DNA of 63,997 nucleotides, the filler included, from Diploschistes diacapsis (taxonomy: Eukaryota), in the NCBI GenBank assembly GCA_023645945.1. It is 6 parts of 6 records of this genome, joined end to end, with 100 filler letters (N's around TTAATTAATTAA, not from the genome) between each part and the next. Parts side by side here need not be neighbours in the genome. Positions count along the whole stretch, not along the records: positions 7,005 to 13,907 come from JALAIB010001339.1; 5 more parts are not named here. One strand, written 5' to 3'. Shown here one piece after another: positions 7,005-13,907 of the stretch. The notes under the pieces were generated by a model. That model was not told the origin of the DNA, did no database searches, and was given only the letters and a program-made list of their open reading frames with translations. Within the stretch, counting starts at the first letter, position 1. Every line of letters begins with the position of its first letter. The position numbers and the translations under genes are program-made.

Positions 7005-7145
7005 TTTGTATAAGACTAAGTAGTCTCTTTACTTTTTCTTCATTTGGTATTATTAATAATTTAAAAACATGACTAACAAAATAACAAACAAAATAACTAC
7101 AGGCTACTATTTTATGTATTCTCCTACTCTACTTTTTTTACAACC
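7005..7145 (+). repeat. Left terminal inverted repeat (141 bp)
   Basis: TTTGTATAAGACTAAG...CTTTTTTTACAACC is the exact reverse complement of 13767-13907. The first mismatch is at 7146/13766. Confidence 0.95.
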
Positions 7146-9792
7146 CAAGCATCATAACTATTTCTCTGTTCAGAGTTCAAAACCAAGTAACAGACCTACT
7201 TTTATATCTAAACTTTTAGATAATCTTGAGGGTGGTAAATTAGAAAGTAATGAGCAAAGTCAAAGAAAAATTGAACAAACTACTATTGATGTTTTTGAAA
7301 CTAATTTTCTTGGTAACACTAAGGCTTATTTTGTTGGTGGTATAAACACACAATTATTAGGGTCTAAGTTAGCTCGTTATATCTTTGAGAGAGAAACCGA
7401 GATTATGTCTTATCTTAATAATTTTACAAAGCAGTTTAAAACTACTAGTAGTAAGAAAAGATATGCTGCTTTTATGAGTGAGATAATCAGAAATAGTGAT
7501 ATAAACTTTTTATACGGTTGTGTTGTTTTACTATATGTATTAGTTTACAATTATCAAAACACTGATGAAGAATCAAAATATTATCTTACACCTGTAGCTA
7601 TAGATATGGGTAAGAAAATAGTAAGAAAATATCTTAACACTTTAAGAAGTGAATATATAAAAGCTAACCAAAGCAAAACAGGTGTTTTAAGTTATTCTGA
7701 GTGATTTGAAATATGACAAACTAATAATCAGGCATATTATAATGTTCTAGATGATCCTTTATATTTGGAAATAGGTTGTAAAATTGTAGAAATATTAGAA
7801 CATACTAATATGATAGAGAAAGTATTGGTTCATACTTCGGATAAAAAGCATACACATATTCTAAAAATACAAGATGATATTATACGTAAAGATAATAGAT
7901 CCATTATTAAATTACCTAGCAAATTACCTATGATTGTAGAACCTAAAGATTATGCTGAGAATAAGTTGGGAGGTTATTTATTAAATAGTGTAAATTATAC
8001 AGAAAATTTGTTTATAGATAAAGTAGCTTATGGGACTGGATCAACAATATCTGAGGATAATAGTGTATACTCTATGGTTAACAATATGAATAAAACACCC
8101 TTTAAAATTAATATAGAATTATTAGATTTTATTAGATCTCATGGAGTTAAGCTGAATCTATTGACAGATCCTGATTATGTTCATCCATTTGCTGACCTTG
8201 AAAAAAAGACATTTTATCAAACAAAAGAATACACTTCTTATCAGAGTAAGCTTGTACTACAAGAAACTATATTAGATATAGCAGATTTCTACAGTAGATT
8301 TTCTCAAATATATATACCGGTTAGACTAGATCAAAGAGGTAGAGTATATTGTAGTCCTCAATATTTAAACTATCAGTCAAATGAACTATCAAAAGCTTTA
8401 TTACTTTTTGCAAATCCTGGTGTTTTAGTTAAGGGAAATCTAGACTCGGTTAAGTATTTAAAATCTTACGGTGCTAATTGTTACGGTGGTGAGCTAGGTA
8501 AATTAAGTGTTAATAATAAAGTAAAATGAGTGGATAATAATCTTCATAATATTATTAATTATAATAATGGTATTTTACTTAAAGAAGCTAAGGACAAATT
8601 ATTATTTCTCGCTTTTTGTATGGAATACAAACGATATAATGAATTTTTACACCAGGAAGAGATTATGGTTTTTCATACCTTTTTACCTGTTCAATTAGAT
8701 GCTACATGTAATGGTTTTCAACATATGGCATTGTTAAGTAATGAAGTTACGTTATTTAAGGAATTAAATCTTACTAGTATACATGATAAACATAATATAA
8801 TAGATACTAACAACATAGCACCAAATGACTTTTATAATTTCTTATTACATAAATTAATTACTTTATTTAAGGACAAAGTATCAAGTAATATTTTATATGA
8901 TGAACGTACAGGAGGTAGTTATGAAAGACTATCTAAATATATTTGACATAGAAGCAATGTAAAGAAAGCTATTATGACTATACCTTATAATACTTCTATT
9001 AGATCTATGAGAAAATATTTACGTGAAAGCTTAGCGGTGTTTGATTTGAGTAAATGTAAAGATGAAAAGTATGACAAAAGCCTTGTTTGATATGGTGATT
9101 CAAATAAAGAACTTTTACTTAATAACCACGATATTTCCTTATTGACTGATAGCCTATCTAATATAATTAAAAATGATTTCGAGAAAATTAAAAAGTTAAT
9201 TAGATATTTAAAGAATATAGCTACTTTACTAAATGTACTAGAATTACCTATTACATGAAATTTACCTAATGGTTTAGAAGTAAACCAGAGTTATTTAAAA
9301 ACTAAATCTACTTCTATCACACCTTTTATGTACAGCAAAACTAAAATTAATTTAAGAGTTACTATTAAAAATAAATATGATAAGAATAAACAAATCAGAG
9401 CTTTAATGCCTAATCTTATACATTCTCTTGACGGAAACTCTTTAAATTTACTATATAATAGATTCTTTGATGAATTTCAAGGTATACCTCCCTTTTACTC
9501 GGTACACGATTGTTTTGGTACTACTTTTGAAAAAGTGAATACATTAAAAACTCTTTTAGCTTCAGTTTATACGGATTTATATACAAATGATTCCTATATA
9601 CACGTATTTGACGAGTCAATAGTTAATACTATTAAAACTCATACTAATTATTATTTTGATGATACAACAAGAATTCTTAAGTTATCTGGAGATAATACAT
9701 ACGAACTACATGATGTACAATGAGTTGTTAACAATAAAGATGTTAAAGAATCAGTAGCAAAGAAAATTGATTCCCAAAATATACTAATTTAG
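7069..9792 (+). CDS. rpo: Plasmid-encoded single-subunit T3/T7-like DNA-directed RNA polymerase, 907 aa (genetic code 4)
   Basis: Track ORFs 7069, 7765, 8530 and 9328 share one frame, separated only by TGA codons (7702, 7714, 8527, 8944, 9088, 9256, 9721); true stop TAG 9790-9792. Motifs: LDQRGRVY, motif A QLDATCNGFQH, motif B RSNVKKAIMTIPYN, ITWNLPNGLEVNQSY, PNLIHSLDG, motif C SVHDCFGT. Confidence 0.95.
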
Positions 9793-9902
9793 TTTAAAAT
9801 TTAATTTCAAAAAAAAAAACAAAAAAAAAAAAAAACCCTATATATAAGCTATAATTAAACTTATAAGATAGGTAAAAAAAAACAACAAAAAACTGTTTTT
9901 AT

Positions 9903-9938
9903 GGAGTACTCTCTCAAAAAGAGTACTCCTTTTTTTTT
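9903..9938 (+). terminator. Stem-loop plus T-tract between the convergent plasmid genes (putative intrinsic terminator)
   Basis: 10-bp stem GGAGTACTCT (9903-9912) / AGAGTACTCC (9920-9929) with a 7-nt loop, followed by T9 (9930-9938). Upstream A-tracts would give T-runs on the minus strand. Confidence 0.6.
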
Positions 9939-9940
9939 GT

Positions 9941-12900
9941 CTAACATTTATCATCTGAACTTGACTCAGATTGGTTATTCTCTTTCTTTATGTTTTCTTT
10001 AACATATTCCTTACATCTAGGATCTATTTTATCTAAAAACTCTTCTTCTGTAGGACTTAACCTTTGTGATTTACTTGATTTATCTTCATTTTTATTATCT
10101 TCCTGCTGCTCCTCCCGGAGGGAGCTCTCAGATTCTGACTTTGAACCATGTAGTTGTGCGTTATTTTCTACAAACTTAACCATAACATCTGTCAGACCTG
10201 CGATTTTCCCAAGATTAAATGATAATTCATTTCTACATTCTTTAGCTTCTTTTATTTCTTTTAATTTAGTTTCATCTATTACGAGTGTAGGATCAGTTTG
10301 AGTAGAACTATCACTTTTACTTTCTTCTGTTGTTTGAGTAGAAGTATCAGATTTATTTTCTTCAGTTATTTGAGTAGAAGTAGAAGTATCAGTTTTACTT
10401 TCTAGAAGAGATTTGTAATAGTCAGGGTCATTTCAAGGATAATATGGTTTATCATCATCACTAGTGTAGTCTGGTCATACATAAACTTCTTTTATTTTAC
10501 CCACAGGGTGTAGCCCTAAGGGGGGTTCTAAGTGTTTTACTTCAGGATTGATTATATTGTTAGAATCTAAATCTTTATCTATTTGATAAAGATTATTTTC
10601 CTTATCATCAATTAACAATATAGGTAATAAAATTAATACTGCAATAAGAGATAGAATACATATATCTAAAATAATAGTGTAAATATTTCTTGTATCTATG
10701 TATACTCCAATAAATGATCCTAGTATATTTTTTGTTTTAAACAATTTAAAAATTGATCATTTACTGTTAGCTTGATCTGATGATGGTTTATCTACGTATT
10801 TTATAAGACTTTTATTATTGTCATAAACTACTAACCCTGTTTTTTCTATGTTATTAATAATAATAGGATAAGTATTTACTCAGTTGTTTGAGTTAGAGTA
10901 TAATTTAGTTCGCTTTTCATATTTATTAGTAATAACAATGTTTTTATCCTCAATAGACACAGAACCTTTCCCTCAATCTATTATACTTTCTTGTCTAGTT
11001 GTCTTAATATCATGACCCTGTAATAAAGATATAAATTGTTCGTGACGCAATAAGTTAGACTTCATACCTTTAGCCTTAATTAAATTCTTACCGTCTTTTA
11101 TTATTAGTGAGTATAATTTACCATTAATAAATATAGCTTTTTCTATTTCAAACTCCAACTTTAATTTACCTATTTCATTAGAACTTACTAAACTATCAAC
11201 TAGTTTAATATCAGTAACTATAGAGTCAGTATCAGAGTAATACAATTTACCTCCATTCTTTAAGATATCTAGTTTTAATTTACTAATATAGATTCTAGCA
11301 TAAGCTGTTATAGCAGCACTTATAGCTACAGATGCTACATTCATAGTACTTACTTCAGAATCACCAAATCTACTAGCAACTTTAGCAAAATCACCATTAA
11401 AATCTTTAACTAAATCATGATCTATACCAGGTATATAACTAGTTAAAATTTTATTATTAGATATTACTTTATAAGATAAAATTCTTTGAAAGAGACCTTT
11501 CGTATTAAAAGTACTAGTTGTTAGTATTTTTGTTACAGCTTTTTCTAAACCTATACCAAATCTACCTAATAAATTATTTAATAAGCTTTTAGCCATAGAT
11601 TTTTGTGTTTTACTTATAGGATTTGATTTAAAGTGATAAATCTTCTCTATGTATTCTTTGAATACATTTGAAACTCTATCAAAATTATAACCTTTTATAA
11701 CCTTTATTTTGTATCCATTTTCTTTAGCAAATTTTAATTCTTCACTAAAATACCAACCAAATCATTTACCTAAAGGAAATATTAAACCAGTATTATTTCT
11801 CACAGGTAACAAACCTAAGTAAGTATTTTCAATGGGTGTTTCTATTCTACAATAGAAAAACCCATATAAGCTATCAATATCGTACATGTCTGTATAGTAT
11901 TCAACTCTAACACAAGACAAACCTGGCATATCTTCTTTAGCTACATAAGGATAAAGTGAATTAACATCGTAATAGAATAGATCTTGTCCGTACGGTCTAT
12001 AAACTTCTGTTATACCTCCATAATAAGCTTGTCTAATATCTTTGTATAAACTAGATTTATTAATCATAGGTATGTTATTTTTATAATAATCCTTAAAAAA
12101 TATTGTTAATGCTAAACCAGAAATAGTTATACTATCAGACATATTAACATTATAATCTAAAAATATTTGCTTATTAGCTTTCATCAATACTTCATAAAGA
12201 CTATTTAAATCATTTATTAAATATTTAATAGTTTCCTCTTTGAAGGATCAATTATCTATTATAAGGTTTTTATAATCATCCATACTAATATTTTCATAGT
12301 AACTTATATTTGGTGTATTACCTGTGTAAAACAAATTGTCTACTAGACTGAATTTATATGGGAATACAGATTTTAATGTATCAACCTCAAAACTTTTACC
12401 TAATACTTCTAAACTGTCAGGTAGCATAGCATAACTATCTAAAATAGTTATTTTACCATTATCTTTACTGATAGTAACTTTAATAATTTTACTATCTCTA
12501 AGGATAGGATTTATTTTAAATTCTTTACCAGGATTACTATCGTTGAAATCATATAATATTTTAAGTATAAATATTATATCATAACCACTCATGTTATGGC
12601 AATAAAATGTTATATTATTGTATTTAGGTCTTATTAGTTCATTTATCATACGTAGTACTAATTCATTACTATTTAAATTATTATCATTAATATAATAAGT
12701 AACAGAGTTTTTATCTAAATTAGTTTTAAAACCTAAAGCATAAATTTTAGAAATATTATCTTTAGCTACATAAGTTTCTGTATCTATAACACCTATATTT
12801 TTATTCTCAATAAATAAAACTGGTTTATATGATTTTTCTACAGGTTTAAGAGCAATAGGTAGAGATATTTTTAAAACATTACTTCCAATCGACTCAATTA

Positions 12901-13843
12901 TTTTTCCTTTTGAGTGTCTAGTAATAGCATCACCTTGTACTATATCAACAACACTACTAATTAATACGCCACCTAAACTAAATCTGTATTTTTCAACAGT
13001 ATAATTATCTATAATATTTATAGCTAATACATAGCTAGTAACATCATGAACAAGATAAAATTTAAAACTGTCATTAAATCTTTCTATTCTGTCCTTGTGA
13101 TTTTTTCTTAGTAATTTACTTTTGTTAACAATTACCTGTAAAAAATTAATATTTCTATAATTCATAAATAAATTTATAGCCGTAATAAAACCTTGGTTAC
13201 TTTCAGTAACTAAAGATCTTCCTAATAGCTTTTCATTATTAGTATAAGGAATTTTAAAATCTTTTGATGAAGAATAATCTTTATGAGTCATTTGTTCAGG
13301 TTTTCTAAGCATTAATTCCTCTAACAATTTGGGTTCAACCATTCTGAATGTTATTTGTACATAATTGATATAATCGCTATCAAAGCCATATTCTACAAAA
13401 TACTCATCTAATCTTCTGTTAAGAATTTCTAATAATTCATTATGATTATGTTCGGTATATTTGTACCCAAATTGATTACCTAACAAAAAGAAGTTATTAG
13501 GACTATATCTTACTTTAACAAATACAATGTAATAACTATTATTTGTAAGCCCTTTTCTCAGTTTTTCAATAAAAGGAGTATGATCGTAATGAAGATCACT
13601 AATATTAAATAACATTATAATAGGCTGTAATTTAGGATGATAATAATCATGTGAAAGATCATCAAGAATACTGTTAGTATTGACTTCCATTTCTAAATCC
13701 TTATTATCAATAGAATTGTCATTATTTAACACGGTATCAACAGAATAATACTTAACAACACCAAAAGGTTGTAAAAAAAGTAGAGTAGGAGAATACATAA
13801 AATAGTAGCCTGTAGTTATTTTGTTTGTTATTTTGTTAGTCAT
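9941..13843 (-). CDS. dpo: Plasmid-encoded protein-primed family B DNA polymerase, 1300 aa (genetic code 4), with putative N-terminal terminal-protein domain and long C-terminal extension
   Basis: Track ORFs 13843-12248, 12187-11762, 11596-10973, 10744-10475 and 10183-9941 share one frame. Hand translation of the gaps finds only TGA (12248, 11762, 10973, 10880, 10757, 10475, 10433); stop TAG at 9941. Motifs: ExoI DTET (D354), ExoII HNMSGYD, ExoIII YLIND, YYGG, motif A YYDVNSLYP, motif B KSLLNNLLGRFG, TAYAR, motif C YSDTDS, KLY. Confidence 0.93.
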
Positions 13844-13907
13844 GTTTTTAAATTATTAATAATACCAAATGAAGAAAAAGTAAAGAGACTACTTAGTCTT
13901 ATACAAA
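13767..13907 (-). repeat. Right terminal inverted repeat (141 bp)
   Basis: Exact reverse complement of 7005-7145; contains the dpo start codon at 13843. Confidence 0.95.

Follow-up and report, generated by a model that had tools for sequence, protein, structure and literature searches.

A contig from a Diploschistes diacapsis assembly as the probable central part of a longer invertron-type linear mitochondrial plasmid

Contig JALAIB010001339.1 occupies positions 7005-13907 of a 63,997-nucleotide (nt) stretch of DNA (the window) joined from six records of the Diploschistes diacapsis genome assembly GCA_023645945.1, and probably constitutes the central part of an invertron-type linear mitochondrial plasmid of an ascomycete in the lichen sample, the real molecule being longer than the contig. 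It carries two convergent polymerase genes, intact under a mitochondrial genetic code, with phi29-like and T7-like matches, capped by an inverted repeat, in agreement with the fungal mitochondrial linear plasmid architecture proposed by an earlier reading of the DNA (the sequence-only reading). Where that reading had seen a complete-looking plasmid, we find that its 141-bp ends most likely represent k-mer stubs left from a repeat that runs further out.

The contig comprises 6,903 nt without any N, is flanked on both sides by N44-spacer-N44 blocks, and has a GC content of 25.9% overall, against about 50% in the neighboring fungal nuclear contigs. In 1-kb windows, its GC fraction ranges from 0.22 to 0.29, compared with 0.43-0.65 in all other contigs of the window, so that the element was rightly described as lying on its own contig, far more AT-rich than its neighbors. 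The contig opens with 141 nt that recur, exactly reverse-complemented, as its last 141 nt, confirming the terminal inverted repeats at both contig ends, and pairing collapses directly beyond them; the existence of the repeat is secure, while its length of 141 nt was probably set by the assembler. The other five contigs of the window hold no copy or fragment of the plasmid and encode ascomycete nuclear proteins (a P450, an adaptin, a vacuolar M28 protease, a MATH-UCH-RING protein, an SNF2 ATPase, and a GH64 protein). No tRNA gene was found on contig 7005-13907.

In translation table 4, two convergent open reading frames (ORFs) occupy 6,627 of the 6,903 nt, each containing seven in-frame TGA codons, no internal TAA or TAG, no frameshift, and a TAG stop, which gives 2,207 codons free of internal stops across both. 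TGA outnumbers TGG by 14 to 1 in the two ORFs together. Two TGA codons of the DNA polymerase (532 and 694) fall in invariant Trp columns of a 15-sequence alignment (the query and 14 relatives), and in the RNA polymerase the TGA at codon 730 is matched by a Trp of the T7 enzyme. On this sequence evidence, code 4 is the correct one, with TGA read as Trp as in fungal mitochondria. Under the standard code (table 1), the DNA polymerase ORF terminates at codon 532, as expected from the suggestion that standard-code gene callers fragment the element, and the two long convergent ORFs nearly filling the contig, uninterrupted by TAA, TAG, or frameshifts, were found as previously claimed. It is from the intactness of these ORFs that the element was called active and self-replicating, and it may be both active and autonomous. 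Both ATGs lie 64 nt from the contig ends, within the repeat, the two genes having in common the 64-nt leader and 26 codons. Because both ORFs begin inside the repeat, the two proteins are identical in their first 26 residues.

The DNA polymerase matches PF03175 (DNA_pol_B_2) with an E-value of 1.9e-94 (317.6 bits against a cut-off of 25.8, covering profile positions 6-458 of 468), and a protein search returned 350 relatives. Invariant in the 15-sequence alignment are the exonuclease residues of Exo I (D354/E356), Exo II (N417/D422), and Exo III (Y541/D545), together with polymerase motifs A (D626-P632), B (K752-G760), C (D871/D873), and KxY (K909/Y911), under their customary names. The assignment to the protein-primed B-family with its catalytic motifs is thereby substantiated. 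A model of the core (residues 340-1010), with a predicted local distance difference test (pLDDT) score of 88.1, finds its best PDB match, along the whole chain, in phi29 DNA polymerase (1xhx_A, E-value 4e-28, template modeling (TM) score 0.75 by target length), archaeal and other B-family polymerases scoring a TM of at most 0.40. By sequence search, no solved structure was found for the DNA polymerase at an E-value of 0.01 or better, and the 15-sequence profile recovered among solved structures only an archaeal B-family motif C (E-value 1e-3). Preceding Exo I, an N-terminal extension of approximately 340 amino acids (aa) contains positions conserved in relatives, such as Y152, Y161, N233, F234, K285, and R287, and is presumed, by analogy with the family, to be a terminal-protein part with a priming role.

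The second gene encodes an RNA polymerase that matches PF00940 (RNA_pol) with an E-value of 1.2e-51 (176.4 bits against a cut-off of 22) and whose residues 391-845 match the T7 RNA polymerase structure 1aro_P (E-value 6e-25). Residues D544, K632, Y640, H785, and D814 align with D537, K631, Y639, H784, and D812 of the T7 enzyme, residues with the usual catalytic roles; both catalytic Asp residues as well as the Lys, Tyr, and His are thus aligned, in keeping with the T7-like identification made earlier. A protein search returned 139 relatives, the best being 52% identical.

Parts of the element were found in four runs of three studies, all of them metagenomes from lichen, rock, or air, and none of the listed runs is an RNA run. 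A lichen metagenome (X1) had a word share of 0.83, with 30 of 30 bins covered at at least 99% and 362 of 368 contigs matching at at least 99%; not one difference from the element is listed for it, its word depth is high, and it may represent the source sample. The word share was 0.44 in a rock metagenome (X2), 0.14 in another lichen run of the study that yielded X1 (X3), and 0.10 in an air metagenome (X4), the latter two yielding mostly diverged pieces, and X2 and X4 contain several other related plasmids. Six loose ends listed in X1 consist of 16-19-nt strings: five repeat a single sequence exactly, in one orientation or the other, and the remaining one is a variant in 79% agreement. We take this sequence to be a transposase library adapter. 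Adapter read-through assembled into X1 contigs would imply a very high depth of the element in that run.

In the protein collection, a DNA polymerase 98% identical to that of the window (1,146 of 1,173 residues) is encoded on a 6,786-nt rock-metagenome contig, which, from its equal length of 6,786 nt, we infer to be the X2 contig. The RNA polymerase half found no cover in X2 at at least 85% over most of 7005-10238, a weak negative drawn from contigs only, which we read as absence or divergence. Taken with the word share of 0.44, it may mean that the halves are combined differently in different copies, or else that X2 has only part of the element. Beyond the X2 variant, the next DNA polymerase relatives are 53-55% identical (among 350), and the nearest relatives overall, the X2-type DNA polymerase excepted, are 51-55% identical. 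A FastTree phylogeny of the DNA polymerase was built from 56 rows, taken as the top 55 by rank together with named ones out of the 99 that were eligible among 121. It pairs the contig with X2 on a long branch of 0.4 changes per site, nested in a 17-row clade with a Shimodaira-Hasegawa-like support of 97 that includes a copy from Coniothyrium glycines mitochondrial DNA (mtDNA). No near-identical named plasmid was found, leaving the earlier claim of novelty in place.

Relatives 50-58% identical on long AT-rich contigs (L007, L010, L011, and L049) adjoin exons of cox1 or nad5 as well as intron endonuclease ORFs of the LAGLIDADG or GIY-YIG type. Mitochondrial flanks are present in 4 of 4 long loci whose flanks gave Pfam matches to mitochondrial genes, and tRNA genes lie near the mtDNA-embedded relatives. 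The position of relatives beside mtDNA genes marks the clade as mitochondrial and fungal, and the reading of TGA as Trp at conserved positions, the 26% GC, and the mtDNA-embedded relatives are indirect pointers to a presumed mitochondrial residence of this element. In L010 (7527-11974), L011, and L049, nad5 is followed immediately by a plasmid-derived DNA polymerase, an arrangement that may reflect repeated integration at one site or common descent.

The length of the repeat bears on whether the contig ends are molecule ends. MEGAHIT has a default largest k of 141, and its unitigs overlap by k; 141 is the largest k in common use with this program, which may not be the assembler used here. A de Bruijn assembler meeting an inverted repeat longer than k would emit the unique core plus exactly k repeat bases per side. 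Only three of the 78 fetched loci are capped by a repeat on both sides (123, 127, and 422 nt), and 123 and 127 are familiar k values. Exact stubs at one contig end, with an internal partner arm that extends further are found in L035 (113 nt, 1-113/10370-10482, extending 260 nt), L030 (120 nt, 536-655/9380-9499, extending 535 nt), and L038 (139 nt, 667-805/11954-12092, extending 666 nt). Stubs of 113-139 nt on demonstrably longer repeats mark end repeats of about k length as assembler products. Among public plasmid contigs, the repeats of 123 and 127 nt at both ends are those of L002 and L032.

The position of the genes relative to the contig ends points the same way. The contig starts within a motif that lies approximately 370 nt inside the repeat of L003, the closest relative having both ends, and its ATGs are 64 nt from the contig end, compared with 148-1,675 nt for the polymerase ORFs of relatives; a closer ATG occurs only in one unnamed end ORF of L002 (30 nt), whose contig has a 123-nt end stub. 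In addition, the 6,786-nt X2 contig matches 10314-13907 and extends 3,202 nt past 13907. The contig ends are probably not the molecule ends, and the real plasmid, judging from these comparisons, is probably larger than 6.9 kb.

Several points weigh against a longer plasmid of this kind. Coverage was taken from assembled contigs, which carry neither read ends nor copy number. No overlaps of 141 nt or of another k size exist among the six contigs of the window. Nor did the outer part of the repeat turn up, as neither viral_contigs nor genome_contigs contains a match to the terminal 28-mer. The 3,202-nt extension of X2 could be mtDNA beside an integrated copy instead of plasmid; none of the 16 relatives of a third ORF of L003 lies on a 6,786-nt contig, and no RNA polymerase match does either. 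The promoter-like motif described below is common to one independent relative only. Finally, of 38 differences between the window and X2, 28 are listed, 22 of which alter the protein and 6 do not, where the chance expectation is 76%, and there is no sign of purifying selection over this short distance. The amino-acid changes fall in the first 342 residues in 13 of 25 cases and in residues 343-960 in 6 of 25.

A complete 6,903-bp plasmid, with natural 141-bp terminal inverted repeats and contig ends corresponding to physical ends, is nevertheless improbable. Its repeat length would equal a standard assembler k, while relatives carry k-sized stubs of demonstrably longer repeats; a promoter-like motif running from base 1 would leave an origin no space; and the 99%-identical X2 contig continues 3,202 nt past the end, two X1 contigs likewise overrunning the ends, though possibly through adapter read-through. 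These facts outweigh a contig filled by two genes, two ends that halt at an identical base of an exact repeat, an initial TTT compatible with a slide-back start (a weak analogy), and a size inside the 5-15 kb range of invertrons as given in part of PMC9925561. The continuation of X2 past the inner border of the repeat by 3.2 kb is also what would be seen if the element were a recent integrated copy in the mitochondrial genome, with the contig spanning between its two repeats. Relatives L007, L010, L011, and L049 do lie in mtDNA beside nad5 or cox1, there is no synonymous excess relative to X2, and fresh inserts can pass for free plasmids, according to part of PMC9925561. Such a copy is also improbable, given that both ORFs are intact across 2,207 codons, whereas the DNA polymerase is fragmented in L005, L008, L043, and L048, whose integration is presumed, that the repeat arms are identical, and that no mtDNA is joined to the contig in the window.

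The host is the point on which another reading gains most ground. A real plasmid of another fungus in the same lichen or rock community, and not of the fungus that contributed the surrounding nuclear contigs, is unlikely on balance but deserves consideration, since all four runs with the element, from three studies, are lichen, rock, and air metagenomes, several other related plasmids occur in X2 and X4, and composition provides no tie to the 50% GC nuclear contigs. On the other hand, X1 contains the element without a listed difference and at high word depth, code 4 and the mtDNA-embedded relatives suit an ascomycete host, and there is no tie to any other organism.

We retain as the probable reading that the contig is the central part of a longer linear mitochondrial plasmid of an ascomycete, for which the following mode of propagation may be proposed. 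The N-terminal part of approximately 340 aa of the DNA polymerase would, by analogy, supply the terminal protein, prime both ends, and stay on the 5' ends, replication proceeding by protein priming followed by strand displacement by the phi29-like polymerase. The T7-like RNA polymerase would transcribe the plasmid's own genes from a promoter inside the repeat, such that one repeat sequence, including the leader, the start codon, 26 codons, and the likely promoter, would serve both genes. Convergent transcripts would end in the A-rich hairpin region 9793-9940, and the 141-nt repeat would be the k-mer overlap left at the inner border of a longer repeat.

The candidate promoter is a bipartite motif, TTTGTATA followed by TAAGTAG, present in both repeat arms (Table 1). 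Among the 78 loci, it occurs in two, namely L003, with its 422-nt repeat, and once in the near-copy L061. In L003, it lies at 368-389 of the repeat, and the start codons of the two outermost genes follow 26-47 nt downstream; by this likeness, the motif at 7005-7025 and its mirror copy probably serve as the promoter of both genes. Between the convergent genes, the hairpin at 9903-9929 is unusually stable, with a minimum free energy of -31.9 kcal/mol and a z-score of -5.7, 0 of 200 shuffles folding equally well, and the region probably acts as a two-way transcript end. A distant subgroup of relatives (L026, L030, L031, L032, L034, L035, L036, L037, L038, L039, and L002) carries a different arrangement, GGTTTATCTAGAACC and then AATCTAGTATTGTG, 25-45 nt before the ATGs of the DNA polymerase, RNA polymerase, and extra ORFs. 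The AATCTAGTATTGTG box was observed 2-9 times per locus versus 0.35-0.75 expected, and the pair looks like a promoter of the plasmid RNA polymerase.

Table 1. Features of the plasmid contig, in window coordinates unless a locus is named
Feature	Position	Strand	Basis
Whole contig: unique plasmid core + 141-nt repeat stubs	7005-13907		Spacer boundaries, GC, no second copy in the window
Left repeat arm, inner 141 nt; RNA polymerase leader + first 26 codons	7005-7145	+	Exact reverse complement of 13767-13907
Bipartite promoter-like motif TTTGTATA ... TAAGTAG, 44-64 nt before ATG	7005-7025	+	Motif of relatives
T7-like single-subunit RNA polymerase, 907 aa, 7 TGA=Trp	7069-9792	+	Pfam PF00940 + T7 match
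RNA polymerase catalytic region	8695-9522	+	Alignment with T7 RNA polymerase
Intergenic region between convergent genes: poly(A) tracts, 10-bp-stem hairpin 9903-9929	9793-9940		Folding versus shuffles
Protein-primed B-family DNA polymerase, 1,300 aa, 7 TGA=Trp	9941-13843	-	Pfam PF03175
Low-complexity C-terminal tail, 225 aa, rich in E/K/S/D, short tandem peptide repeat	9944-10618	-	Sequence
Hydrophobic transmembrane-like helix, residues 1057-1075	10619-10675	-	Kyte-Doolittle 19-aa mean 2.99
Exonuclease + polymerase core, residues 340-1010	10814-12826	-	Invariant columns, fold model
N-terminal extension of ~340 aa preceding Exo I, putative terminal-protein part	12824-13843	-	Conserved positions; family analogy
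Right repeat arm; DNA polymerase leader + first 26 codons	13767-13907	-	Reverse complement of left arm
Mirror copy of promoter-like motif	13887-13907	-	Inverted repeat
Extra ORFs with WNxWEK motif in relatives	L022 245-1348, L034 184-1506, L037 7271-8692, L032 7683-8792, L030 8495-9499

The hydrophobic segment of the DNA polymerase sits 188 aa past motif C, outside the phi29-matching part, and is followed by the charged tail. We surveyed 121 polymerases (the query and 120 matches; relatives P0123-P0242); 9 have no YxDTDS string, and in 64 the chain stops fewer than 260 residues past it, leaving 48 long polymerases. A similar hydrophobic stretch is present in 39 of these 48, located 139-282 residues (median 174) past the motif, and upstream of the motif in only 2 of 48. 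In L002 (3243-3923) and L014 (3935-4603), a similar segment is encoded by a separate small ORF directly downstream of a shorter polymerase. We suggest, tentatively and with more doubt than confidence, that the polymerases of this plasmid lineage are membrane-anchored by a single helix approximately 175 aa past motif C, accompanied by a variable charged tail. If true, the helix would tether plasmid replication to the inner mitochondrial membrane, and such an anchor could account for the keeping and partitioning of selfish linear DNA in mitochondria; in the portion of the literature on plasmid polymerases with transmembrane segments that was covered, no such anchor is described. The X2 contig breaks at the tandem repeat of the tail (EENKSDTSTQT/EESKSDSSTQT, window 10296-10360), and X2 carries a 6-nt deletion there, tail length thus differing between close variants.

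A survey of architecture covered 22 of 79 sequences. A convergent DNA and RNA polymerase pair is present in L002, L003, L009, L014, L022, L023, L026, L030-L032, L034, L036, and L037, and many relatives with such a pair measure 8-9.5 kb and have one or two extra ORFs between the polymerase genes and the ends. No Pfam family was found in the 10 extra ORFs of relatives tested. A C-terminal motif (WNxWEK ... DFK ... W) is common to the end-proximal extra ORFs of five contigs (Table 1), which seem to constitute a third, unnamed family of genes in these plasmids. Beyond the two polymerase genes, contig 7005-13907 contains no extra ORF; in a longer molecule, such an ORF could be located outside the contig.

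Matches were also encountered in bacterial records. A 39-kb featureless plasmid record of Peribacillus frigoritolerans contains an RNA polymerase match at 67.5% nucleotide identity (L079, NZ_CP110133.1 30235-30883), and an 11.4-kb plasmid record of the same strain contains a DNA polymerase match at 29.7% protein identity (NZ_CP110135.1 7995-9863). These records may be non-bacterial DNA in that assembly. Apart from the Peribacillus records, the only similar bacterial plasmids found in PLSDB were those of Bacillus thuringiensis, which show 26-27% protein identity and are presumably tectivirus-like.

The more useful lesson of this contig is that an end repeat as long as the assembler's k is no evidence that a linear replicon is complete, and pipelines that mine for plasmids and accept inverted-repeat-capped contigs will overcount the complete ones. 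The element would also extend the hosts of invertrons to a lichen-associated ascomycete; in the literature on invertron plasmids with lichen or Lecanoromycetes, no such case appears in titles or abstract openings. The conserved helix and the promoter-like motifs offer handles on the tethering and transcription of these plasmids, and links to senescence or longevity would be drawn by analogy.

Compared with known systems, the contig resembles the invertrons kalilo, maranhar, pClK1, and pAL2-1 of Neurospora, Claviceps, and Podospora, as well as those of Lyophyllaceae, in its inverted repeats, opposed polymerases, AT-rich composition, mitochondrial code, and genes that start in or beside the repeat. 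According to part of PMC9925561, which covers 55 Lyophyllaceae plasmids, invertron plasmids have terminal inverted repeats, opposed DNA and RNA polymerase genes, and a size of 5-15 kb. Unlike these, the element has nearest database proteins just 51-55% identical, the classic plasmids having been compared by description only.

The closest contig with both ends is L003 (Ga0209624_10005142), an 8,834-nt metagenome contig with 53% identity in the DNA polymerase and 51% in the RNA polymerase. The two have in common convergent polymerase genes, outermost ORFs that start just within the repeat, the TTTGTATA...TAAGTAG motif before the ATGs, and the post-polymerase hydrophobic helix (P0124/P0243 cluster, to which L003 probably belongs, judging from length and identity), whereas only L003 has a 422-nt repeat and, separating its left repeat from the DNA polymerase gene, a third ORF (293 aa, with several hydrophobic stretches). 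The nearest named homologues are the dpo and rpo of Coniothyrium glycines mtDNA (UniRef A0A3G4S7P6 and A0A3G4S6L6; genome paper PMC6221350), with 58% identity over 67% of the query for the DNA polymerase and 49% for the RNA polymerase; unlike the window contig, they are integrated in a circular mtDNA, with no repeat-capped contig. The fold and catalytic residues of the two enzymes are like those of phi29 DNA polymerase and T7 RNA polymerase. With phi29 DNA polymerase, the plasmid enzyme has 18% identity, and it is longer by approximately 340 aa at the N-terminus and by approximately 290 aa at the C-terminus, where the membrane-helix-like segment lies. By these sequence comparisons, the plasmid is new in sequence and ordinary in kind, from a lineage only about half identical to its nearest relatives.

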